Shown in pieces: positions 2,190 through 27,280 of a stretch of DNA of 32,375 nucleotides (the stretch's first letter is position 1; every line of letters begins with the position of its first letter). Location of the stretch: NCBI GenBank assembly GCA_002779355.1, contig PEWS01000040.1:1-32375 (forward strand). Reading direction: 5' to 3'. A program made the translations under genes and the position numbers. The DNA is from Candidatus Nealsonbacteria bacterium CG07_land_8_20_14_0_80_39_13. Its GTDB lineage: Bacteria; Patescibacteriota; Minisyncoccia; Minisyncoccales; GCA-002779355. The notes beneath the pieces are model-generated. The model saw only the letters and a list, made by a program, of their open reading frames with translations, had not been told where the DNA came from and ran no database searches.

Positions 2190-4331
2190 ATGTTTAAAAA
2201 AATCATACAAATAGTAACATTACTTATAGTTGGTCTGTTTTTTACGGTTGGTCAGGTTTCAGCGGCTGATAATCCGACAAGCGGGACATTAACCGCTTCG
2301 ACTAATTCGGCAGTTGTCGGAACTAATGTAACTGTAACTATTACAGCTTCTGACGGCGATGGGATAGAAAAGGTTTGCTTGACCGATTGTAAAGATTGTC
2401 AAAATGCGACAAATTGCGCGCAATCTTGGCAAATAACTCAAGCTGTAATAGGGTCGTTTTACGCCGAAGCCAGTGTTTGCGCGAAAAATGCGGATACAGG
2501 CGTTAATGAATGTTCAAGGACTAATCCGGAGGGCATAAGCATTGATTTTTCCGATTTGACTGTTTCGTGTTCGGCGAGTCCGAGCCCGGTTCAGACGAAC
2601 AATAACGTAACCTTTACAGCTACAGTTTCCGGCGGAACAGGAACGTATTCTTACGCTTGGACGGGGGATTGTACAGGAACCAATCCAACTTGCGCTAAAT
2701 CATTCAGTTCGGCAGGAACTTTTACTCCGACTTTAACTGTTGTTTCCGGAACAGAAACAAAAACAGTTAGCTGTTCTGCAGTTGTTCAATCAGGTTCAAT
2801 TCAGTATATTTCCGTACCCCAATATATTCCGGCATCATGTAACGGTTGTGGTTCTTGCGGGAGTGGTTCTTGTAATGGTTACAGCAATCACAGTTATTCG
2901 CAATGTTACGATGAAGATGTCTATTGGTATTGTTCTAATAATATAAAAAATGACAAGAAAGAAGAATGCGGAAGCGATTCTTGCGACCAATGGACCAATT
3001 ATTGTTCAAGTGGCAATGTTTATAAAAAAAGAAATTGTTATGATCGGGGGTGTAATAACGCCGCTTGTTTCTCCACCTCAAAAGCAGAAAGTGAGTTTGT
3101 GGAAAACTGTAGTTCGCTTGGCTGTGAAAACGGAAAATGTGTTGTTAAGCCGGCTTGCGAATGTTCTTTCGGCCCATGTTGCGATGGGTGTTATTACAAG
3201 CCTTCAACTTCAATTTGCGAAACAAAAGTAGAAATTCAATATGGCTGTCCTTGGGGAACGGGGTGCGGAGCTGATGTGGCCAAGAGGTCAAACAGCACAT
3301 TTCGCTATTGTTCAGGAGCAAGTAATTTGTGTCTTGGCGAATGGAAGCAGTCTTTGAAGCGGACAAGTTGGACAGTGGTTGATTATTGTTCAGTCGGCGA
3401 GACGTGCTCTGTCGGCAAATCAGCCTGCTCTTATAATTCAGCCTGTACAAGACCTGTAAATACTTATATTAAAAATTATACAAAAAAGTGTTCAGAAGAT
3501 AATCTTTTTTGGTACGATTCCAATAATTTGAAACAGGGAAAATATCGCGATTGCGCCGATGAAAACGACTGTACCTCTGACAGTTGCGATAATAATAAAT
3601 GCGCCAATGAATTGAAATGCGACGGAACAGCCTGTTCAGTCGGTTCAGATAGTTATTGCGAGAGTTGCGAATCTTGCGGAGATGACGTTTGCAACTGCAA
3701 CGAAACTCCTTGCGGATGTCCGGCTGACTGTAAAATATCAGGGCTTTCGGTTTCTGTTTTATGCAAAGAAGCAGGGGAGTCAACCGACTGGAGTAAAGAC
3801 ATAAAGGCCTCTCCTTCAAGCAAGCTGGATGTTCTTTTGGTCGTTACCAATAGCGGACAAGATGATTTGGAAGATGTTTCTGTGGAGGTGAATTTACCCA
3901 AGGAACTCAAATACCAAAACGATCTTAAAATTGGAGGGGATGCCTATAAAGGAGATATCGCCTTAGTTAATGTCGGAGATTTGTCTTCAGGTTCTTCTAA
4001 AACGATAACCTTGGGAGTGCTCACCGGCAGGATTTTGGATGATTCTGATTTTTCTATAGCCGGAACTGTGAGCGATGGGAATTTAAAGTCTTCTGATTCG
4101 GTTAAGATTTCTTTAGCGGGAACAGGCGCATCCGGAATCGCAACTGTTTTCTCCGGCACAGCTTTCTCAATTTCTCAATGGCAAAATTGGCAATATCTTT
4201 TCTGGCTGGCGACAATCGCTCTTGTAGCTTTTGGGGCATTTTATATCTTCCCCATTGTGAGAAAAAAGAAAAAAGAGGCGATGCTTAAAGACATCATTAA
4301 AGGAGTAGCTTCCGCCGACAAGTTATTATAA
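2190..4331 (+). CDS. Large secreted cysteine-rich protein with a PKD-like domain and a C-terminal membrane anchor
   Basis: A 713-aa ORF with an N-terminal signal peptide (LLIVGLFFTVGQVSAADN). It has a PKD-like segment (VSCSASPSPVQTNNNVTFTATVSGGTGTYSYAWTGDC) and many Cys-rich modules. The C-terminal hydrophobic helix YLFWLATIALVAFGAFYIFPIV is followed by RKKKK. Confidence 0.85.
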   Translation: MFKKIIQIVTLLIVGLFFTVGQVSAADNPTSGTLTASTNSAVVGTNVTVTITASDGDGIEKVCLTDCKDCQNATNCAQSWQITQAVIGSFYAEASVCAKNADTGVNECSRTNPEGISIDFSDLTVSCSASPSPVQTNNNVTFTATVSGGTGTYSYAWTGDCTGTNPTCAKSFSSAGTFTPTLTVVSGTETKTVSCSAVVQSGSIQYISVPQYIPASCNGCGSCGSGSCNGYSNHSYSQCYDEDVYWYCSNNIKNDKKEECGSDSCDQWTNYCSSGNVYKKRNCYDRGCNNAACFSTSKAESEFVENCSSLGCENGKCVVKPACECSFGPCCDGCYYKPSTSICETKVEIQYGCPWGTGCGADVAKRSNSTFRYCSGASNLCLGEWKQSLKRTSWTVVDYCSVGETCSVGKSACSYNSACTRPVNTYIKNYTKKCSEDNLFWYDSNNLKQGKYRDCADENDCTSDSCDNNKCANELKCDGTACSVGSDSYCESCESCGDDVCNCNETPCGCPADCKISGLSVSVLCKEAGESTDWSKDIKASPSSKLDVLLVVTNSGQDDLEDVSVEVNLPKELKYQNDLKIGGDAYKGDIALVNVGDLSSGSSKTITLGVLTGRILDDSDFSIAGTVSDGNLKSSDSVKISLAGTGASGIATVFSGTAFSISQWQNWQYLFWLATIALVAFGAFYIFPIVRKKKKEAMLKDIIKGVASADKLL

Positions 4332-6233
4332 ATTAGTTTTTTCTTCTATTTCTTTCTTTAGTTTTTGGATAAAATCCTCTATCTTTATCGCTCCCAAGTC
4401 TTTATTCTTGGAGCGGATGGAAACGGAATTGGCTTCAATTTCTTTGTCTCCGATAATTAAGATGTAGGGGATTTTTTCCATTTCAGCCGCTCTGATTTTC
4501 TTGCCGAGGGTATCGTTTTTTTTTTTGACTTCTACACGGATATTATTCTTTTTCAGCTCATCAGCTGTTTTCTGGGCAAACTCCAGATGTTTTTCACTTA
4601 TCGGTATTAAGGAAACTTGGACAGGGGATAGCCATAAAGGGAACGCTCCGGCATAGTGCTCTATTAAAAGCCCTAAAAATCTCTCAAAAGAGCCCATTAG
4701 CGCCCTGTGGAGCATGAATGGCTGCTCTTGTTCGCCCTTAGAGTTAATAAAGGTCATATTGAACCTTTCCGGCAAATTGAAATCAAATTGTAAGGTTGAG
4801 CATTGCCATTCCCGTCCGAGAGCGTCTTTTATTTTGTAATCTAATTTCGGACCGTAGAAGGCAGCTTCTCCTTCCTGTTTCTCGTATTCAATATTTAATT
4901 CTTTAGCTACTTTTTCCAAAACTTCTTCGGTAAATTTCCAGCCCTTTTCATTGCCGGCATATTTGTCCTTATTTTTCCTGTCCCTCAAAGAGAGATATAT
5001 TTTGTAGTTCTTGAAACCGAAAGCTTCAAAATATTCTTTAATGAAGTTCGCCACCCTTTTTAGTTCATCTTCAACTTGTTCTTTGGCGCAGATGATATGA
5101 GCGTCGTCTTGAGTGAATCCTCTGACCCTGGTCAGTCCGGAGAGTTCGCCTGATTTTTCATAGCGATAAACCGTTCCGCATTCAGCCCAGCGTAGAGGAA
5201 GTTCTTTGTGGGAACGGAGCTCTGATTTATAAATCCTTACATGGAAGGGGCAATTCATCGGCTTAAGCAAATATTCTTCTTTTTTTACTCCTTCTTTTTC
5301 TTTTTTTCCTTCTGATTGCTGATAGTCTTTCAATGATTTGCTTACTTCAAGAACGGGATACATGCTGTCGTTGTAAAAATTCCAATGGCCTGATTGCTCC
5401 CATAAATTTCTGCTGCCGATATGAGGGGATCTGACTAATTGATAGCCATTGTTAAGGTGTTTTTTGTACCAAAAATCCTCAATTATTCTCCAAAGGAGAG
5501 CGCCTTTTGGTTTCCACATCGCCAAACCCAACCCGACAACAGGGTCAAGCAGAAACAGGTCTTTTCCGATTACCCTATGATCTCTTTTTTCCGCTTCATC
5601 CATCATTTTTGAGTATTTCTCCAATTCCTCTTTTGTCTCAAAAGCCAAACCATAAATCCTTGTCAGCATTTTATTCTTTTCGTCTCCCTTCCAGTAGGCG
5701 CCGGCTGTTTTTGTCAATTTAAAACTGCCATCGACAATTTCTTCGGTATTTTTTATATGAGGGCCCTTGCACAGATCAATGGAATCTCCGCTCTCGTAAA
5801 CAGAAATTGTTTTATCGGTCAATTCCTTTATCAATTCCAATTTATAGGGCTGTCCGCGGAATATTTTTTTAGCTTCTTTTTTGGAGACGATCTTCTTTTT
5901 GAATTTAATATTCTGCTTAATCAATTCCCTCATCTCTTTCTCAATCTTTACTATGTCCTCGGGCGATAGTCCGAATTTTTGTTTTAGGTTTGGGATTTGT
6001 CGTCCAGAGGACGACCTCGGCCAGAGGCTGACCAGCCTTTGGCTGGAGCCTCTGGCTGGGGATTTGGGATTTGGGATTTGGGATTTAACGATTTTGACTT
6101 CAGAAAAGTCAAAATCGTAATAGAATCCCTTATCTATTGCCGGCCCGATGCCAAATTTAACTTTCGGGTAAAGTTTTTTAACCGCCATAGCCATAATGTG
6201 AGCGAGCGAATGTCTTGCAATTTCTATGTTCAT
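4326..6233 (-). CDS. thrS: Threonyl-tRNA synthetase, lacking the N-terminal TGS domain and carrying a repeat-derived insertion
   Basis: A 635-aa ORF that is colinear by eye with E. coli ThrRS from the N2 editing domain onward. Shared landmarks are HSLAHIMAMA, KPMNCPFH, RVRGFTQDDAHIF, GEAAFYGPK and HRALMGSFERF, plus a C-terminal anticodon-binding domain. Confidence 0.95.
   Translation of the reverse strand: MNIEIARHSLAHIMAMAVKKLYPKVKFGIGPAIDKGFYYDFDFSEVKIVKSQIPNPKSPARGSSQRLVSLWPRSSSGRQIPNLKQKFGLSPEDIVKIEKEMRELIKQNIKFKKKIVSKKEAKKIFRGQPYKLELIKELTDKTISVYESGDSIDLCKGPHIKNTEEIVDGSFKLTKTAGAYWKGDEKNKMLTRIYGLAFETKEELEKYSKMMDEAEKRDHRVIGKDLFLLDPVVGLGLAMWKPKGALLWRIIEDFWYKKHLNNGYQLVRSPHIGSRNLWEQSGHWNFYNDSMYPVLEVSKSLKDYQQSEGKKEKEGVKKEEYLLKPMNCPFHVRIYKSELRSHKELPLRWAECGTVYRYEKSGELSGLTRVRGFTQDDAHIICAKEQVEDELKRVANFIKEYFEAFGFKNYKIYLSLRDRKNKDKYAGNEKGWKFTEEVLEKVAKELNIEYEKQEGEAAFYGPKLDYKIKDALGREWQCSTLQFDFNLPERFNMTFINSKGEQEQPFMLHRALMGSFERFLGLLIEHYAGAFPLWLSPVQVSLIPISEKHLEFAQKTADELKKNNIRVEVKKKNDTLGKKIRAAEMEKIPYILIIGDKEIEANSVSIRSKNKDLGAIKIEDFIQKLKKEIEEKTNL
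5992..6118. repeat. Composite repeat inside thrS: GGGATTT unit, 59-nt GC-rich module, (GGGATTT)x4, 13-bp perfect inverted repeat
   Basis: GGGATTT lies at 5992-5998 and the GC-rich module at 6001-6059. Four GGGATTT units span 6059-6086. The inverted repeat ACGATTTTGACTT/AAGTCAAAATCGT spans 6088-6118. Confidence 0.85.
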
Positions 6234-6269
6234 AATTTTATTATTTTATTGTATTAATTAACGAATTTT

Positions 6270-6296
6270 CGCCAGGGGCGGATCGGCCTTTGACCG
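6270..6296. repeat. GC-rich modular repeat copy (CGCCAGGGGCGGATCGGCCTTTGACCG), intergenic between dnaE and thrS
   Basis: It shares GCCAGGGGC-ATCGGCC with 18423-18439. A degenerate reverse copy lies at 15506-15531. Confidence 0.7.
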
Positions 6297-6351
6297 AAAC
6301 GAGTTTCTGAATTAACTTATTTATTATATCAGAAACCCTCCTTTTTTCCAC

Positions 6352-9300
6352 TTATGGTTTTTTTGTCAGTTCACGGGCTTCGTCGCAGATTACTTTCGGG
6401 GAGTCGCCCCTGAAATCAACGCTTCCGACGATAATGACGATTTTATTTTCCTGAAACAATTGAGGATTCTTTTCCATTATCTTAGGGAAGACAACTATTT
6501 CCAACTTGCCGTCAGCATCCTCAATATTCAGAAAAAGCATCGGCTTTCCGGTTTTGGTGATTATTTTTTTAATTGCGCCGATAACTCCCCCGACTTTTAC
6601 TTTTGTCCCGCCGATATAGTTTTTTATTTTTGAAAGAGGGGTAGTGTATTTCAATAATATATCCTGAAATCCATCTAAAGGATGAGCTGTTACAAAAAGA
6701 CCGAGAAGTTCTTTTTCCCATTTTAATTTTTCGTGTTCGGAAATAGGCTCAATTTTATCCAAGCGGAATTCAGTATTGTTTTTTTTCTCGCTTTCCATCG
6801 CCCCAAAAAGGCTTTTCTGCCCGTTGGACTTCATTTTTTTGTTTTCTCTGCCATACTCAAGCAACCTTTCTACATTATGTAAGAGTTGTCCCCGCTCGCC
6901 GAATTTTTCAAAAGCCCCTGCCTTGATCAGGCTTTCCAATGATTTTTTATTAAGATCTTTTGATCTGGCGCTGACGCGGTCAACGAAATCAAATACTGAA
7001 TTATAGGGTCCGGAGCTTTTTCTCTCTTGGATGACTGTTTCCATTATATTTTCGCCGACATTTTTTATCGCCAAAAGTCCGAAGCGGATTTGTTTGGGGG
7101 GGACAACGGTAAAATTCTGCAAGCTTTCATTTATATCCGGAGGAAGAACTTCAATTCCCATGCTTTTGGCCTCTGATATCAGGAAGCCGATTCTTTCCGT
7201 ATCGTTTCTTTCTGAAGTTAAAAGAGAGGCTGTAAATTCAGTTGTGAAATGAGCCTTCAGATAAGCGGTTTGGTAGGCAATCATAGCGTAGCAGGTGGCA
7301 TGGGATCGATTGAAAGAATAGTGGGCGAATGGTTCTATCCAATGCCATATTTTTAAAGCGACGCTTTCGTTGATGCTGTTTTTCTTCATCCCGTCAACGA
7401 ATTTTTTCTTCTGTTCCATCAGAAGTTTTTCAATTTTTTTGCCGATGGCTTTTCTTAAGACATCAGCTTCAGGCATGGAAAAGCCGGCCAAGTCCTGGGC
7501 GATTTTCATAATTTGCTCCTGGTAAACGGGGATGGAATAGGTGCTTTCCAGAATCGGTTTCAATTTCGGATGGAAATAAGTAAGGTCTTTTTGTCCGTGC
7601 TTGCCGGCAATATATTCCGGAATAAGAGCCATCGGCCCCGGACGATATAAGGCAACCATAGCGATAATATCTTCAATATTACTCGGTTTTAATTGTTTTA
7701 GGTATTTTCTCATTCCCTCGCTTTCCAGCTGGAATACTCCGACCGTAAGCCCTCTTTGGAGAAGTCTATAAGTTTTTTCATCGTCAAGAGGGATGTTTTC
7801 CAAATCAATATTCTTTCCTTGAACCTTGTATATTCTGGAAAGAGTGTCTTCGATAATGGTCAGGTTTTTTAATCCCAAGAAATCCATCTTCAATAATCCC
7901 AAGTCAGCCACAGCATGCATTTCGTATTGAGTGACAATGATTTTATCGTTTTGGGTCGGATGCTGCAAAGGAATAATTTCGTCCAAGGGCTGATTAGAAA
8001 TAACAACCCCGCAGGCATGAGTAGAGGCGTGTCGGACAACCCCCTCCAATCTTTTAGCCAGATCAATCAGCTTGCGGGCTTTTTGGTTTCCCTCGTAAAG
8101 TTCCCGGAATTTAGTTACGCTGGCCAATGTTTTTTCCAAATCAAGGCCGAAAGGAATCATTTTCGCCACCACATCGCAGTAGCTGTACTCATATCCCAAA
8201 ACCCTTCCCACGTCTCTGATTCCGGCTCTGGCGGCTATTGTTCCGAAGGTGATAATTTGAGCTACCTTATCTCGACCGTATTTTTCAGAAACATATTCAA
8301 TTACTTCATTTCTGCGCCGGTCGTTGAAATCAAGGTCAATATCAGGCAGTCCTTCAGCTCTTCCCGGATTTAAAAATCTTTCAAATAAAAGATTGTATTT
8401 TAAAGGGTCAACGTTAGTGATGTTGACGAGGAAGGAAACCAAAGAGCCGGCCACCGAACCTCTTCCCGGTCCGACCACGATTCTGTTTTTTTTGGCCCAA
8501 TTGACGAAATCTTGGACTATCAGAAAGTAAGAAGCCAGCCCCATTTTTTGGATAGCTGAAAGTTCGTATTCCATTCTTTCCAGAATCTTACTTCTATCTC
8601 CTTCCGGATACCTTTTTTCCACCCCTTCAAGGCAGAGTTCCCGTAAGTATTCGTCAGGGGTTTTTCCTGAAGGGACTTCAAATTTAGGCAATTTTATCTC
8701 CCCCAATTTGAATTCAAAATTGCAGGCCTCGGCGATTTTCCCGGTGTTTTCAATCGCTTCCGGAGTTTCCTTGAAGTCTTCAGCCATTTGCTCCGGCGTT
8801 CTGAAGGAAAAATCGTCTTTAATCAGGGTTCTTCTTTCCGGGTCGTTAAGATTAGCGCCGGTATTGATAAGCATCAGTACATCCTGGACTTCAGCGTCTT
8901 CCGGTTTCAGATAATGGACATCGTTTGTGGCCACCAGAGGGATATCCAATCTTTTGGAGAGAGCGATTAATCCTTCGTTAGCTTTTTCTTGGCCATCAAG
9001 GTTTTTATGTTTTTGTAGTTCCAGATAAAAATTTTCTTTGCCGAAAATTTCTTGGTATTTGAGGGCGGTTTTTTCCGCTTCGTCCATTTTATTATTAATA
9101 ATCATCCTCGGGATTTTCCCTTGAATACAGGCGGAGAGGGCGATCAATCCTTCTGAATATTGGGATAATAATTCTTCGTCAACTCTTGGTTTGTAATAGA
9201 ACCCTTTTAGGTGAGATTGGGTTATTATTTTTACTAAATTTTTATATCCTTTTTCGTTTTTGGCCAATAAAATCAAATGGTATCTTTTGTCGTCAATGTT

Positions 9301-10319: not shown

Positions 10320-10463
10320 TTTTTGGTTTTTTCTTTTTTTAAGGTGCTTATCGCACTTTTTTGACGGGATTATTATTTCCCTTGCCCCTTAATTACCATA
10401 AAAATAAGTCAGACGTCAAATTTTCATGAGCCATTTCAAATTTTTTAGCAATTTTACAGGGAT

Positions 10464-10580
10464 TTTACAGGGGTCAGACCCCTGTAAATTCCGCAGTGGT
10501 CAGACCCCTGCAAATTGTACCCCTGTAAATTGTTTGAAGAGGCCTATGTTGACGGGCCTATGTTGACGTCAGACGTCAAC
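10464..10580. repeat. Cluster of palindromes centred on GTC-A-GAC plus short direct repeats
   Basis: A 25-nt perfect palindrome TTTACAGGGGTCAGACCCCTGTAAA spans 10464-10488. A degenerate copy spans 10493-10511, and GTTGACGTCAGACGTCAAC spans 10562-10580. GGCCTATGTTGACG occurs twice and ACGTCAACGCTT occurs twice. Confidence 0.85.
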
Positions 10581-10625: not shown

Positions 10626-11252
10626 ATGAGATACCCTAATTTAAATGAAGAAAAAAAGTTGTGGAAAAGCGGATATAAGTACGTAGTGGGGTTGGATGAG
10701 GCCGGAAGGGGACCGCTTGCGGGGCCGGTTGTGGCTGGAGCGGTAATGTTAAAAAATTACAAATTTCAAATTTCAAATTTCAAATTTCTAAAAGAGATGC
10801 GAGGGGTGAAAGATTCAAAGAAATTATCGGCGAGAAAGAGAGAAGAGATTTATGAAGTCCTGACGAATCATCCGGCGATAGAATGGGGGGTTGGCCGGGT
10901 TTCTGAAAAAATAATTGATAAGATAAATATCTTGGAGGCGACGAAACTGGCAATGATAAAAGCAATAAAAAAATTTAAAGTTGATTTTCTGATTATTGAT
11001 GGAAATTTTAAAATAAAAAAAGATATTCCGCAGAAATCAATAATAAAAGCAGATGCTAAAGTTTTTTCCTGCGCCGCCGCCAGCATTATCGCCAAAGTGA
11101 CAAGGGACAGGATAATGGAGAAAGAGCATAGAAAGTATCCGAAATATAATTTCGCCAAGCACAAGGGTTATCCGACGAAAGAGCATTATAAAGCCATAAG
11201 GAAAAACGGCTGTTGCAAGATTCACCGAAAAACCTTCCGTTTGGAAAATTAG
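10626..11252 (+). CDS. rnhB: Ribonuclease HII
   Basis: GLDEAGRGPLAGPVVAGAV and DSKKLS motifs. An in-frame heptamer-tract insertion (NYKFQISNFKFL) lies between them. Confidence 0.9.
   Translation: MRYPNLNEEKKLWKSGYKYVVGLDEAGRGPLAGPVVAGAVMLKNYKFQISNFKFLKEMRGVKDSKKLSARKREEIYEVLTNHPAIEWGVGRVSEKIIDKINILEATKLAMIKAIKKFKVDFLIIDGNFKIKKDIPQKSIIKADAKVFSCAAASIIAKVTRDRIMEKEHRKYPKYNFAKHKGYPTKEHYKAIRKNGCCKIHRKTFRLEN
10759..10788. repeat. Heptamer tract (ACAAATT, then TCAAATT x3) inside the rnhB coding sequence
   Basis: Read directly from the sequence. It encodes YKFQISNFKF. Confidence 0.9.
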
Positions 11253-12790: not shown

Positions 12791-13171
12791 ATGTTGGTAA
12801 TTCGCTTGCTTCGCAAAGGAAGGAAAAATCAGCCTTTCTTCAAAATTGTGGTTACGGATAAAAAGAATGCTCCCCGAGGAGGACGTTTTGTTGAGGAGGT
12901 TGGTTTTTGGAACCCTAAGACAAAAGAAAAAACATTGAACGGAGACAGAATAAAGCACTGGATTTCTATGGGCGCAAAGCCTTCGGAAACAGTCTACAAT
13001 CTTTTAATTGTTGGAAAGATCATTGAGGGCAAAAAAACAGCAGTTCATAAAAAATCTAGGCCAGAGGCCCATCGTCCTCTGGACGACAAGAAGAAGCCGG
13101 CTGAAGGAGGAACTGCCCCTGTTGCGGAAGCCAAGAAAGAAGAGAAACCTGCGGAAGCCGTAGCTCAATAG
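12791..13171 (+). CDS. rpsP: 30S ribosomal protein S16 with a C-terminal extension containing a GC-rich repeat
   Basis: MLVIRLLRKGRKNQPFFKIVV...RFVEEVGFWNP. Confidence 0.9.
   Translation: MLVIRLLRKGRKNQPFFKIVVTDKKNAPRGGRFVEEVGFWNPKTKEKTLNGDRIKHWISMGAKPSETVYNLLIVGKIIEGKKTAVHKKSRPEAHRPLDDKKKPAEGGTAPVAEAKKEEKPAEAVAQ
13069..13097. repeat. GC-rich modular repeat copy inside the rpsP 3' extension
   Basis: GGCCAGAGGCCCATCGTCCTCTGGACGAC. It shares CGTCCTCTGGACG with the thrS copy. Confidence 0.75.
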
Positions 13172-16020: not shown

Positions 16021-16141
16021 ATAATCTTTGTTAAAATTTTTAGCGCAGAATTATGGAGACCGGGTCTCCGTAATTCTGGATAATTACGCTTCGGCGGAGT
16101 TTTTTGTTTTCAAATAACGGTGAGGCGGGAAGGGGAGTTTA

Positions 16142-16205
16142 CAGGGGTCAGACCCCTGCGGAATCTACAGGGGTCAGACCCCTGTGAAAACCCCTGTGAA
16201 ATTTG
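16142..16205. repeat. Two CAGGGGTCAGACCCCTG palindromes plus CCCCTGTGAAA direct repeats
   Basis: The palindromes span 16142-16158 and 16168-16184. This is the same unit as at 10467-10485. Confidence 0.85.
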
Positions 16206-16873: not shown

Positions 16874-16908
16874 TTAAATTTCAAATTTCAAATTACAAAT
16901 TTCAAAAA
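16874..16908. repeat. Intergenic heptamer tract (TTAAATT TCAAATT TCAAATT ACAAATT TCAAAAA)
   Basis: It ends 2 nt before the ATG at 16911. Confidence 0.9.
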
Positions 16909-18420: not shown

Positions 18421-18520
18421 CGGCCAGGGGCATCGGCCAGAGGCCCCAGCCAAAGGCTCCAGCCAAAGGCTGGTCAGCCTCTGGCCGAGGTCAGCTTCTG
18501 GCCGAGATAGTCCTCTGGAC
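18421..18520. repeat. Largest GC-rich modular repeat (100 nt) upstream of the HlyD-family gene
   Basis: It is built from GGCCAGAGGCC, CCAGCCAAAGGCT x2, GGTCAGCCTCTGGCCGAGGTC, AGCTTCTGGCCGAG and GTCCTCTGGAC units. Positions 18454-18492 are identical over 39 nt to the reverse complement of 6013-6051 in thrS. Confidence 0.85.
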
Positions 18521-18528
18521 TAAAAAAT

Positions 18529-20112
18529 ATGGATGAAGAAAATAAGAAAAACAAGAAAGGTTGGGCGGGGAAAATCGCGGTTTTGGTTGCTATTATAATA
18601 GTGGCTTATTTTGGTCTTTCTCAAACAATTTTTAAGCAAAAAGAGACAGGATTTAGGGTCGTGAAAGCGGAGATGAGAAATATTGTTCAGGAAATATCAG
18701 AGACAGGGACAGTTAAAAAAGGGGAAGAAACAAGACTGTCTTTTAAAAATGGAGGACGGATAGAAAAAATTTGGGTCAAAGCCGGAGATAATGTTGTTAA
18801 GGGAGAGGCTTTGGCGAAAGTTGACATAAGTGAAGTATCAATAAAGCTTTCCGAAGCCAAAGCTAATTTATTATTTGTTAAAGCAAAATTGGAGAAATTG
18901 ATGGCCGGCGCGAGCAATGAGGAAAAAGCCAGCGCTGAAACAGCGGTTTTGAACGCCGAAACAGCAGTTAAAAACGCAGAACATAATTTGGAAAATATAA
19001 AAGCTTCAGCTGAAAATAATCTCCTTGACACACAAGAAGACGCTAAGATTGTTTTAAACTCCGCTTATTTGACTATAAGCAATTCTTTTAATGTTGCTGA
19101 TTTGATAGAGAGAACTTATTTTTCCGCTAACGATCAGGAGGGGATATTGGTCAGGGAAAGCGTTGAAAAAATAGAAAAATTCTTATCCGTTGAGAATGAC
19201 CTTGCTAAAATGGAGGGGAATCTTAATATTGTATCTGATGCGTTAAAGAAAATCAGGGATATCTGCGAAGAAACGAAGTACAGAAATATTGTTTCTTCAA
19301 CCGATAAGGCTTCTTTGGATACTCAAAGGACGAATATAAACACAGCCTTAACCAATGTTGTTAATTCCGAGCAGGCAATTTCCTCTGTTAAATTAACCAA
19401 TGAATATAATATTAATTATGCGGGAACATCTCTCTCTTCGACTAAGGGAACCTTGGCCTCCGCTCAAAACAGCTTAGCTCTGCTGATAGCTCCGCCTCGC
19501 CAGGAAGATGTTAATTCTTACAAGGCTCAAGTAGTTCAGGCCGAAAGCAGTGTTGCTCTTTTGGAAAACCAGCTGAAAGAAGCTGTTTTGAGAAGTCCGT
19601 CTGACGGTCAAATAATAAGGGTTGAGGGAAAAGAGGGAGAGATGCAGGTGGCCGGAAGCCTCGCTATGTCTTTCTTGCCGACAGCCTTGTTTGAGATTGA
19701 AGTGAATATCTATGAAGAGGATATTGCTAAAATAAATCTTGGCGACCCGGCTGGTATTTCGCTGATAGCTTTTCCGGATAAAAAACTCAACGGAGAAGTA
19801 ATCGCCATTGATCCGGCTGAAGAACTTATTGAAGGGGTTGTTTATTACAAGACAAAAATAAGCATCAAGGATGCGCCGGAAGAAGTTAGGCCGGGAATGA
19901 CCGCTGATATAGACATTAAAAAGAATATTAAAGAGAATGTGCTGACTATCCCATCGGAAGCAGTTGGAAAGGAAAATGGAAAAGCGTTTGTTCAGTACCT
20001 GAAGAATGGAAAGATAGAAAAAAAAGAAATCATCATTGGCGCTCAAGGAAGTGGCGGTTTAGTTGAAATAATCTCCGGATTGAGCGAGGGCGATGAAATA
20101 AGAGTCAAATAA
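18529..20112 (+). CDS. HlyD/MacA-family efflux adaptor (membrane-fusion protein)
   Basis: An N-terminal TM segment, a long coiled-coil region, and barrel-sandwich/beta-barrel motifs (GTVKKGEE...VKAGDNVVKGEALAKVD, PGMTADIDI). It is followed by an ABC ATPase and an FtsX-type permease. Confidence 0.8.
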   Translation: MDEENKKNKKGWAGKIAVLVAIIIVAYFGLSQTIFKQKETGFRVVKAEMRNIVQEISETGTVKKGEETRLSFKNGGRIEKIWVKAGDNVVKGEALAKVDISEVSIKLSEAKANLLFVKAKLEKLMAGASNEEKASAETAVLNAETAVKNAEHNLENIKASAENNLLDTQEDAKIVLNSAYLTISNSFNVADLIERTYFSANDQEGILVRESVEKIEKFLSVENDLAKMEGNLNIVSDALKKIRDICEETKYRNIVSSTDKASLDTQRTNINTALTNVVNSEQAISSVKLTNEYNINYAGTSLSSTKGTLASAQNSLALLIAPPRQEDVNSYKAQVVQAESSVALLENQLKEAVLRSPSDGQIIRVEGKEGEMQVAGSLAMSFLPTALFEIEVNIYEEDIAKINLGDPAGISLIAFPDKKLNGEVIAIDPAEELIEGVVYYKTKISIKDAPEEVRPGMTADIDIKKNIKENVLTIPSEAVGKENGKAFVQYLKNGKIEKKEIIIGAQGSGGLVEIISGLSEGDEIRVK

Positions 20113-22075: not shown

Positions 22076-22111
22076 TCAAAATTACAAATTATAAATTACA
22101 AATTACAAAAA
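22076..22111. repeat. Intergenic heptamer tract (ACAAATT ATAAATT ACAAATT ACAAAAA)
   Basis: It ends 3 nt before the ATG at 22115. Confidence 0.85.
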
Positions 22112-22432: not shown

Positions 22433-23467
22433 ATGTCGTTGAAAAGGGAATTACTTATCATTATCTGTTTTGTTTTTTTGTCTTTGACTCTGATTGTGTC
22501 GGTTTCTTTCGCTTTGTTTGAGATGGAGACAAAGAAGCCTTTTAATCTTCAGGGGAAAGAAGAGGTTTTTGTTGTTGAGAAAGGGGAGGGGGCTAAACAA
22601 ATAGCCAAAAATCTTGGGGAAAAGGGGGTTATCAGAAATGACATTCTTTTTATTCTTTACGTTCTGAAAAGCGGTGAGGCCGGGAAAATTAAGGCCGGAA
22701 AATATTCTCTCTCCTCGGCTATGACTATTTCTCAAATAGCGGAGAAATTAGTTAAAGGCGAAGTGATGAAAGAAAAAATTATCATTCTTGAAGGATGGAG
22801 TTTGCGGGATATTGAGAGAGAGCTGATTTCCAAATTCCTCGTCCAGAGGACGACCAGCCTCTGGCTGGAAATTTCAGCAGAGAATGTGAAGTCATATAAG
22901 GAAGATTATGAATTTTTGAAGGATGCGCCGGACAGCGCTACCCTTGAGGGCTATATTTTCCCGGACACTTATGAGGTTGACGAAGGAGAAACCACAAAAA
23001 GTATAACCAGAAAAGCTTTGGATAATTTTGATAAGAAGTTGACGGAAGACTTAAGAAAAGAAATAAAGAAACAAAATAAAAGCATATTTGAAATCGTGAC
23101 AATGGCTTCTTTGTTGGAAAAAGAGGTCAGGACATCAGAGGATAAAAAAATTGTTTCCGGAATTTTTTGGAAAAGAATAAGCATCGGCCAGCCGTTGCAA
23201 AGCTGCGCCACTGTCGCTTACGCCATCGGGGTTGATAAATGGAGGTATTCATATGAAGACACAAGAACTAAATCTCCTTATAATACTTACTTGAATCAGG
23301 GATTGCCCATTGGTCCTATTTCTAATCCCGGGCTTGAGAGCATTAAGGCGGCGATTGAGCCGGAAAAAAGCGATTATTGGTATTATCTTTCAGATACTGA
23401 AGGAAAAACAATATTCAGTAAGACATTTGAGGAACATAATATAGCCAAGGCAAAATACCTTAAATAA
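22433..23467 (+). CDS. mltG: Endolytic murein transglycosylase MltG (YceG-like)
   Basis: An N-terminal TM segment, and the motifs ILEGW, ASLLEKE, QSCATVAY, SPYNTYLNQGLPIGPISNPG. Confidence 0.85.
   Translation: MSLKRELLIIICFVFLSLTLIVSVSFALFEMETKKPFNLQGKEEVFVVEKGEGAKQIAKNLGEKGVIRNDILFILYVLKSGEAGKIKAGKYSLSSAMTISQIAEKLVKGEVMKEKIIILEGWSLRDIERELISKFLVQRTTSLWLEISAENVKSYKEDYEFLKDAPDSATLEGYIFPDTYEVDEGETTKSITRKALDNFDKKLTEDLRKEIKKQNKSIFEIVTMASLLEKEVRTSEDKKIVSGIFWKRISIGQPLQSCATVAYAIGVDKWRYSYEDTRTKSPYNTYLNQGLPIGPISNPGLESIKAAIEPEKSDYWYYLSDTEGKTIFSKTFEEHNIAKAKYLK
22840..22868. repeat. GC-rich modular repeat copy inside the mltG coding sequence
   Basis: CGTCCAGAGGACGACC+AGCCTCTGGCTGG matches the two ends of the thrS module (6001-6016 and 6047-6059) without the internal units. 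It is followed by AAATTTC. Confidence 0.8.
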
Positions 23468-27201: not shown

Positions 27202-27265
27202 AAAAAAACAGATTAACCCGTTCCAGCCAGAGGCTGGTCCACCTATGGCGGAAACCCGTTAATCT
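27202..27265 (-). terminator. Terminator-like long interrupted hairpin after the 717-aa gene
   Basis: The outer stem AGATTAAC/GTTAATCT (27210-27217 / 27258-27265) encloses a GC-rich repeat hairpin. A U7 run follows on the minus strand (27208-27202). Confidence 0.45.
27223..27251. repeat. GC-rich repeat copy embedded in a terminator hairpin
   Basis: CCAGCCAGAGGCTGGTCCACCTATGGCGG. Confidence 0.65.
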
Positions 27266-27280
27266 CTTAATTTCAAAATA

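Follow-up and report, generated by a model that had tools for sequence, protein, structure and literature searches.

Candidatus Nealsonbacteria bacterium CG07_land_8_20_14_0_80_39_13 has a 586-kb genome of 39% G+C in 44 contigs, and the stretch of DNA analysed here, referred to as the window, is its 32,375-nucleotide contig PEWS01000040.1 (contig C14). On the minus strand of the window lies thrS (4326-6233), the gene for the essential threonyl-tRNA synthetase (ThrRS), and in the part of thrS that encodes the editing domain stand 132 nt of repeat DNA (5973-6104) that leave the reading frame open. This insert is probably a translated and tolerated repeat insertion that arose at the DNA level, by selfish or recombinational means, at a loop that is a hot spot for such events. 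It is built of three layers: a junction hairpin of 13-15 bp that consists of the host's own Y-D-F-D-F codons and their inverted copy, a heptamer array related to an element of ~65 nt dispersed through the order, and a species-specific 60-nt GC-rich module that probably dropped into the heptamer array recently.

The thrS open reading frame (ORF) encodes 635 residues comprising an N2 editing domain, a class II core and an anticodon-binding domain. Pfam matched tRNA_SAD (E = 6.7e-16), tRNA-synt_2b (1.2e-50) and HGTP_anticodon (8.4e-23), and a PDB search returned the ThrRS of S. aureus (1nyq) at E = 1.7e-161. The product, which the initial annotation of this DNA, made from the letters alone, had already taken for an essential ThrRS, is a bacterial-type class II threonyl-tRNA synthetase without a TGS domain, and apart from the insert it is intact in its Pfam domains and in its modelled fold. 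Its N-terminus begins straight away with the HxxxH motif of the editing domain (residues 8-12), and the Parcubacteria orthologues seen here likewise have no TGS domain. Relatives of the protein carry the names Gribaldobacteria, Portnoybacteria or Parcubacteria.

The extra residues were delimited by alignment to solved structures and to other genomes. S. aureus ThrRS covers query residues 3-44 and 89-632 with just 2 residues between them, the alignment to E. coli ThrRS (1qf6) resumes at query residue 89, and in 29 of 30 genomes of the same order the ThrRS match splits into ~1-44 and ~88-632. The early estimate of about 40 extra residues thus holds as to their being extra in both the PDB and the order alignments, and is refined in size: the repeat-made stretch of 132 nt encodes residues S44-F87, and the net gain over the nearest orthologue is 126 nt or 42 amino acids. 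The insert lies between the strand ...GFYYDFDF and the helix PEDIVKIEKEM of the N2 editing domain.

Read in the coding sense, the insert region opens with the junction hairpin (6087-6119, minus strand; TACGATTTTGACTTT-TCT-GAAGTCAAAATCGTT) and continues with four perfect AAATCCC heptamers (6059-6086, minus strand), which form the 5' part of a heptamer backbone and encode KSQIPNPKS; TRF reported this array with period 7, 4.0 copies and 100% matches. Next comes the nested GC-rich module (5999-6058, minus strand), 60 nt of 15-nt palindromic units that encode ARGSSQRLVSLWPRSSSGRQ. The units are TCGTCC-AGA-GGACGA, TCGGCC-AGA-GGCTGA and CCAGCC-TTT-GGCTGG plus a 13-nt partial unit, and the G+C content of 5999-6059 is 67% versus 40% for the whole of thrS. 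The 3' part of the backbone (5973-5998, minus strand) consists of a fifth AAATCCC (5992-5998) followed by AAACCTAAAACAAAAATTC and encodes IPNLKQKF; it is homologous to the conserved ...AAAATTCAAAACARGAATTT end of the insert in other lineages. The thrS copy is therefore a shortened heptamer backbone of 72 nt plus the GC module of 60 nt. Folded as single-stranded DNA, the insert region reached -43.5 kcal/mol compared with -14.7 +/- 2.9 for shuffled sequences (z = -9.9), and the GC module formed two strong hairpins. The inverted repeat, the two heptamer blocks and the GC module all lie where the initial annotation had placed them (6088-6118, 6059-6086 and 5992-5998 for the first two), and its description of the insert as repeat DNA was borne out by BLAST, unit scans and an order-wide search, in which the parts of the insert recurred elsewhere.

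The 90%-identity cluster of this ThrRS has 20 members, at least 12 of which are full length with an identical insert. These come from NCBI, JGI and ENA assemblies and differ at several other residues; one carries N82D. In one public assembly of the same species a gap of 30 N lies inside the insert, and ThrRS was called from an internal start as a 556-residue protein. This gap, together with the 39-of-39 identity between part of the module and another locus, is what one would expect if chimeric joining via the repeat had put an intergenic repeat into thrS. Such an artefact is nevertheless extremely improbable, given the same 635-residue protein with the same insert in at least 12 assemblies from three sources that are polymorphic elsewhere, the intact reading frame, and homologous backbones at the same site in many other taxa. 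These data confirmed that the insert is real.

Of the relatives found, 'Candidatus Parcubacteria bacterium A4' is the closest; it shares the dnaE-thrS neighbourhood and 88% amino acid identity in ThrRS. Its thrS lacks exactly 126 nt and reads GFYYDFEF-ITPPSDQDLM-KIEKEM, which leaves a basal loop of 12 residues. Orthologue alignment, which the initial annotation had proposed as a check, showed that the segment is not a conserved ancestral region of ThrRS, being absent from those 29 genomes, from A4 and from the PDB structures. A homologous insert of 24-30 residues nevertheless occupies the same site in many distant Parcubacteria ThrRS (DFDF-SEVKIVNPKSQxPNPKQIxNSNxQNSKQEF-KLTPDDLP). The length of this loop was compared in 109 relatives, a sample in which insert bearers are over-represented because the searched region contained the insert. 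It varies from 10 to 58 residues: 42 relatives show the basal 12, at least 23 carry an insert of the heptamer type, and others hold other inserts at the same loop. A profile search from the N-terminal alignment returned, among the matches listed, mostly distant insert-less ThrRS from many phyla. In a ThrRS tree built with the loop removed, our protein was sister to the insert-less A4 and the insert states were scattered, with at least 16 changes of the heptamer type forced by well-supported branches. The ThrRS editing-domain loop is an insertion hot spot in Parcubacteria.

We fetched the DNA of nine insert-bearing thrS orthologues and compared it with our copy. Between lineages, the canonical insert of 90 nt shows 77-88% identity, a value partly inflated by low complexity, versus 67-72% for the following 600 nt of thrS. 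The 60-nt GC module was not found in any thrS orthologue examined, and in two lineages (P0002 and P0023) other GC-rich hairpins, 42 and 24 nt long, are nested at roughly this point of the array. The invasion by an element that the initial annotation had proposed therefore stands as a repeat insertion and not as a single event, since the layers differ in age, the GC module alone being species-specific and the backbone being common to distant Parcubacteria.

Elsewhere in ThrRS, a second small insert, STLQ(L/F)(H/R)SGQ(A/I/T)KE, recurs behind the GPH(I/V) motif within the editing domain of P0002, P0016, P0024, P0097 and P0108, and near the C-terminus of P0023 there is a GC-hairpin-like LPADRQALPAGRQ insert, so ThrRS has several permissive loops.

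The distribution of the backbone could also be read as descent: the backbone might be an old, vertically inherited segment of Parcubacteria ThrRS that was precisely lost many times, including in A4, which would leave the GC module as the only true insertion. The peptide SEVKIVNPKS...NSKQEF and its DNA occupy exactly one site in at least 10 lineages and are homologous among them, the hairpin head of 17-18 nt is specific to thrS and missing at other copies of the heptamer core, and the tree is unable to tell gain from loss. We nonetheless think this descent unlikely. Insert DNA more conserved than the flanking coding DNA is odd for a vertically inherited disordered loop, at least 16 state changes would require a repeated exact return to the 12-residue basal loop seen in A4, and copies of the heptamer core demonstrably lie in many other genes and spacers. 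Because the loop of A4 is clean and the insert DNA is conserved in excess, comparison of these sequences favours repeated gain of the backbone over repeated loss.

At the junction between host gene and insert, a perfect 13-bp inverted repeat is formed by ACGATTTTGACTT (6088-6100) and AAGTCAAAATCGT (6106-6118) around the loop CAGAA. The initial annotation had counted this repeat as part of the inserted element, and here the analysis contradicts it: the left arm of the hairpin (6105-6119) is the host's conserved codons Y39-F43, so half of the inverted repeat is host gene. Only the right arm (6087-6101), which opens the insert and encodes E-V-K-I-V, is extra, and in the insert-less orthologues examined it is absent. 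In all ten lineages the insert starts with the reverse complement of the host Y-D-F-D-F codons, in the arrangement TAYGAYTTYGAYTTY, 3 nt, GAARTCAAARTCRTA. Over 15 pairs, 94.7% of the cells in these ten lineages are standard pairs, and three pairs changed on both sides, which are exactly the wobble positions of Tyr, the first Asp and the second Asp. None of 500 shuffles matched the observed pairing or covariation, and slid controls were 30-47% paired. Where a host residue has changed (DMDF, DFEF), the stem is mismatched. Eight lineages have TCN as the loop triplet and the other two have AGA; since AGA is the complement of TCT, this is suggestive of loop inversion. An apparent extension of the hairpin to GGGATT/AATCCC was dismissed as incidental; it exists only where the host has GGATTC (our genome and G002) and is not general.

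The distribution of the heptamer element was examined with a 90-nt query from one orthologue in 301 genomes of the order. A core of ~65 nt was matched in 108 of them, usually over query positions 18-82 and often at several loci per genome, and copies sometimes formed adjacent mirror pairs; positions 1-17, which correspond to the hairpin arm, were matched at thrS-like loci only. Thirty loci were fetched, and at 19 of them the element lay within an open frame of 179-730 codons; in every such case the A-rich strand was the coding one. On the coding strand the heptamer units are free of stops in all frames. Judging from their motifs, we take the hosts to include PheT, ArgRS, LeuRS, TopA, TatD and isoaspartyl methyltransferase.

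Hairpins were also found in front of these other copies. A perfect stem of at least 7 bp within 45 nt upstream of the element was present at 9 of the 30 loci and, in a second and independent set, at 15 of 49 copies, with most stems ending 0-4 nt before the element, compared with 18 of 538 random windows (3.3%) taken from the first locus set. No enrichment of hairpins was seen on the 3' side of the element. The upstream stems vary by locus, and in several genes both arms are host codons, as in HAFDL-N-KIESV of PheT. Anatomically, the chief new result of this analysis is the succession of a locus-specific hairpin and a heptamer array.

In our own genome, BLAST with the hairpin-plus-heptamer backbone found no second full copy, just generic AAATCCC-like arrays; therefore the backbone itself is not a dispersed element in this genome. 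Period 7 is the commonest tandem-repeat period there (127 of 746 TRF rows), and many such arrays occur in long ORFs, for example at C2:14651, C8:1938, C10:1566, C33:4597-5662 and C44:4690-5461. In the window, five AAATTTC heptamers (10754-10788, plus strand) lie in frame in the RNase HII gene (10626-11252), in a loop that holds other heptamer-type inserts in orthologues. Two further arrays (16876-16906 and 22079-22109; AAATTTC and AAATTAC, ~4.4 copies) end 4-5 nt before an ATG (16911 and 22115) and could function as A-rich leaders without structure. The LeuRS loop after RFLxKVW (C33:3471-5972) carries an insert of ACAAGGA-type heptamers in our genome and a KSQIPNPK-type element in another genome (locus L140). 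The same loop thus received different arrays and is another hot spot.

The GC module belongs to a family of its own. Its unit is 15 nt long, with a 6-bp stem ending in CC, a 3-nt loop (AGA, TCT, AAA or TTT), and GG plus the complement. The genome holds 100 such units versus 16-26 in shuffled sequence, and the motif GCCAGAGGC occurs 38 times versus 1.2 expected. We recognised ~34 bona fide modules, 13 of which are exactly 30 nt (two units, ten codons). About half of the modules lie in ORFs, where they are read in different frames and both orientations to give peptides such as RPEADQSLAG, QRTTSLWLE, SSSGR and PASGW, and some form C-terminal tails ending at stop codons; modules with at least two units number 12 in ORFs and 7 between genes. 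The two-unit pattern has 13 sites in this genome; of 300 other genomes of the order, only 13 contain it, at 1-3 sites each and mostly as TCCGCC...GGCGGA doublets.

Outside thrS, the modules of the window lie in the genes for S16 and YceG/MltG and in three spacers. The claimed identity between 6013-6051 and the reverse complement of 18454-18492 is exact over 39 nt and is the longest exact match; the longer arms 6000-6061 and 18444-18505 are 92% complementary over 62 nt. The matching copy is an intergenic member of the family with 4-6 units (18435-18522, no strand assigned), directly upstream of an HlyD-like gene that starts at 18529. Two-unit modules of 30 nt lie in frame in the YceG/MltG gene (22433-23467) at 22839-22868 (plus strand), in a loop whose length varies among orthologues, and in the gene for ribosomal protein S16 (12791-13171) at 13057-13086 (plus strand), in a C-terminal extension. 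Alignments of MltG and RNase HII place the repeats in loops of variable length and are too ambiguous for exact insert boundaries. A further 30-nt two-unit module is intergenic (27223-27252, no strand assigned). It is surrounded (27209-27266) by a direct repeat AACCCGTT inside an outer inverted repeat AGATTAAC...GTTAATCT, and may have inserted into the loop of a hairpin that was already there, duplicating 8 nt.

The presence of the same heptamer on both sides of the thrS GC module had been taken as a sign of nested insertion or target duplication. Nesting agrees with our data, as the module sits in the heptamer array, and insertion into a pre-existing array accounts for the heptamer on both sides. 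Target duplication is not shown by them, flank repeats being weak genome-wide. Direct repeats around GC modules, the trace that the target-site duplication of miniature inverted-repeat transposable elements (MITE) would leave outside their terminal inverted repeats, averaged 2.5 nt versus 1.65 nt when permuted, 3 of 500 permutations being as high, and this slight excess is largely due to flanks that are AT-rich and heptamer-like.

The genome has four Y1_Tnp (PF01797) genes. A link between the GC family and transposases of the RAYT type (REP-associated tyrosine transposases; REP, repetitive extragenic palindromic) was considered and rejected, as no Y1 gene is flanked by GC units. A third hairpin family, CAGGGGTCAGACCCCTG doublets, was seen between genes only, at 10459-10514 and 16133-16193 of the window and at C2:7584-7626 and C2:8492-8534; the latter two bracket the IS200/IS605- or RAYT-like Y1_Tnp gene C2:7672-8463 on both sides in a REPtron-like layout.

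An AlphaFold2 model built from 35 sequences had a mean pLDDT of 86 and a pTM of 0.78, and superposed on solved ThrRS (1nyq and 1qf6; Foldseek TM 0.77-0.80 to 1nyq). Residues 49-85 had pLDDT <50 and no secondary structure, between a confident strand (36-42) and a confident helix (91-106). The model thus shows the insert as a disordered loop in the editing domain, in line with the solvent-exposed loop that the initial annotation had anticipated. The peptide is of low complexity and contains no intein blocks. The insert lengths in the orthologue DNA compared (72, 87, 90, 114 and 132 nt) are all multiples of 3 without stops, and the nested modules of 24, 42 and 60 nt are likewise each a multiple of 3 with an open frame.

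These lengths bear on whether the insert is translated at all. It might instead be cut out of the mRNA, the second option of the initial annotation, or be skipped by the ribosome in the manner of the mobile GC-rich 'byp' elements of Magnusiomyces mitochondria, and a highly structured (z = -9.9), GC-rich insert in an AT-rich gene would suit such a fate. We consider this very unlikely, however, because every insert and module is a multiple of 3 and stop-free even though heptamer arrays cross all three frames, and because the same modules elsewhere form C-terminal tails that end at stop codons. Furthermore, no take-off/landing codon pairs were found, and an Rfam scan of 5800-6400 returned no family at threshold, whether intron, ribozyme or other. 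Judged from the sequence, the insert would be translated and neutral or tolerated.

The insert or its hairpin might have been retained for a function, as an mRNA or DNA structure that regulates thrS expression or replication-transcription traffic, or as a new interaction loop of the editing domain. The hairpin is kept with compensatory changes in 10 lineages, insert DNA is conserved above its flanks, and heptamer arrays also stand immediately upstream of two start codons, all of which would accord with selection. Yet the closest relative and most orthologues manage without the insert, unrelated inserts occupy the same loop in other lineages, and the same repeat classes occur in loops of many unrelated proteins and in spacers. 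The model has no fold in this segment, Rfam gave no match, and intramolecular template switching would keep the palindrome without selection. A retained function therefore seems improbable to us.

The reading we prefer is that the layers come from insertion or from template-switch (fold-back) events rather than from selection for protein function, with the hairpin-plus-heptamer backbone probably first and the GC module later. A fold-back or template switch that copied the adjacent host codons would account for the host-derived arm, for its perfection in each lineage and for the covariation. The insertion of the GC module would be recent, on account of its 39-of-39 identity to another locus and the perfect heptamers around it. 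As the heptamers are stop-free and the 5-codon GC units are readable in several frames, an essential gene could keep such DNA in the form of a disordered, solvent-exposed loop. Several points weigh against this reading. Selection on nucleic-acid structure would equally explain the host-derived arm, its perfection and its covariation, and a conserved covarying hairpin could also mean a functional RNA or DNA structure. The scatter in the tree is as compatible with many precise losses as with many gains, and low complexity contributes to the identity of the insert DNA. Moreover, the search restricted to called ORFs is biased towards in-frame copies, and no enzyme is linked to the GC (CCAGAGG) family, none of the four Y1 transposase genes being flanked by it.

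Taking the hairpin, the heptamer element and the GC modules jointly, we tentatively raise a bolder possibility, which we hold with considerable doubt: the heptamer element may be an undescribed kind of mobile DNA of bacteria of the candidate phyla radiation (CPR), protein-free, frame-neutral and tied to DNA hairpins. It would integrate immediately 3' of a hairpin, or make one by fold-back copying of 8-15 nt of its target, and the fold-back hairpin would afterwards be held perfect by template switching. Interchangeable GC-hairpin modules, perhaps mobilised by one of the HUH (Y1) enzymes of the genome, would then use the heptamer array as a landing pad. If this is true, the thrS site is a natural time series of insertion, from the empty site of A4, through the backbone alone in Gribaldobacteria and Portnoybacteria relatives, to the backbone with three different GC modules in three lineages.

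The thrS insert is of wider interest since an extremely reduced genome of 586 kb tolerates and keeps generating repeat DNA inside the most essential genes, and here three repeat classes are stacked at one protein loop. The junction hairpin made from host codons, covarying and recurring at other copies, is a concrete lead to the origin of such elements, which are not known to have an enzyme of their own. In practice, such inserts inflate protein lengths, break assemblies, as the N gap illustrates, and mislead gene callers, as in the case of the 556-residue ThrRS. They also mark loops that accept ~40 extra residues, and are potential strain-level markers for population genomics of CPR bacteria.

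Two other features of the window were noted. Tandem repeats of 72 nt and 144 nt stand at its start (1-360), in a Cys-rich repeat ORF, and downstream of thrS (2190-4331) is the gene for a 713-residue Cys-rich secreted-type protein with faint PKD-like matches.

Heptanucleotide arrays dispersed in a genome are known from cyanobacteria as short tandemly repeated repetitive (STRR) sequences, which are mainly intergenic and have other unit sequences. The period-7 arrays described here are similarly dispersed through the genome, and differ in that the unit order over ~65 nt is conserved across genera, the arrays lie in frame in ORFs and a hairpin stands in front. The GC clusters of yeast mitochondria are short mobile GC-rich palindromes in AT-rich DNA with in-frame copies in var1, and thus share with our modules both the setting and the tolerance in frame in a protein gene. 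They belong to another lineage and an organelle, to other sequence families, and have no heptamer backbone. Quasipalindrome template-switch mutagenesis (the Ripley model) is a mutational mechanism and not an element family. It would explain the exact inverted arm of host codons, arms that are perfect across lineages, and TCT versus AGA loops, but alone it does not explain the attached heptamer array.

The comparison with Rickettsia palindromic elements (RPE) is by description and not by sequence, and draws on two papers (PMC10969869, PMC3733652) that summarise the work of Ogata et al. (2000, 2002). As described there, RPE lie in frame in housekeeping and essential genes about as often as in intergenic DNA and are compatible with the protein fold; they are single elements of ~100-150 bp in ten families, each with one conserved peptide. 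The repeats studied here resemble RPE so described in forming dispersed families (~34 GC modules; a heptamer core in 108 of 301 genomes), in being hairpin-forming, in occurring in a small AT-rich genome, and in lying frequently in frame in functional ORFs (thrS, rpsP, yceG, rnhB and others), where they add surface peptides. Unlike RPE, the thrS insert is modular, with a host-derived junction hairpin, a heptamer array of ~65 nt and 15-nt GC palindromes; its GC units of 15-30 nt are read in several frames to give different peptides, and the host belongs to the Parcubacteria of the CPR.

REP sequences are short GC-rich imperfect palindromes, single, paired or in arrays and sometimes inside genes, which form REPtrons with RAYT Y1 HUH transposases (PMC3733652). 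Like a REP/REPtron system, our genome has GC palindromes and four Y1_Tnp genes, one of them flanked by hairpin doublets (CAGGGGTCAGACCCCTG). Unlike REP, the 15-nt GC units of the thrS family carry no GTAG/CGTC tag and begin with TCGTCC, TCGGCC, CCAGCC, TCAGCC or TCCGCC, about half of the units lie in ORFs and thus they are not predominantly extragenic, and the GC family flanks no Y1 gene, the REPtron-like layout here belonging to a different hairpin family. In the limited collection of literature that we searched, no work on in-frame repeats in CPR/Patescibacteria was found, only work on RPE, REP and MITE. Although it departs from those families in size, tag, RAYT association and host, the thrS insert matches RPE in its behaviour and, in part, intragenic REP.

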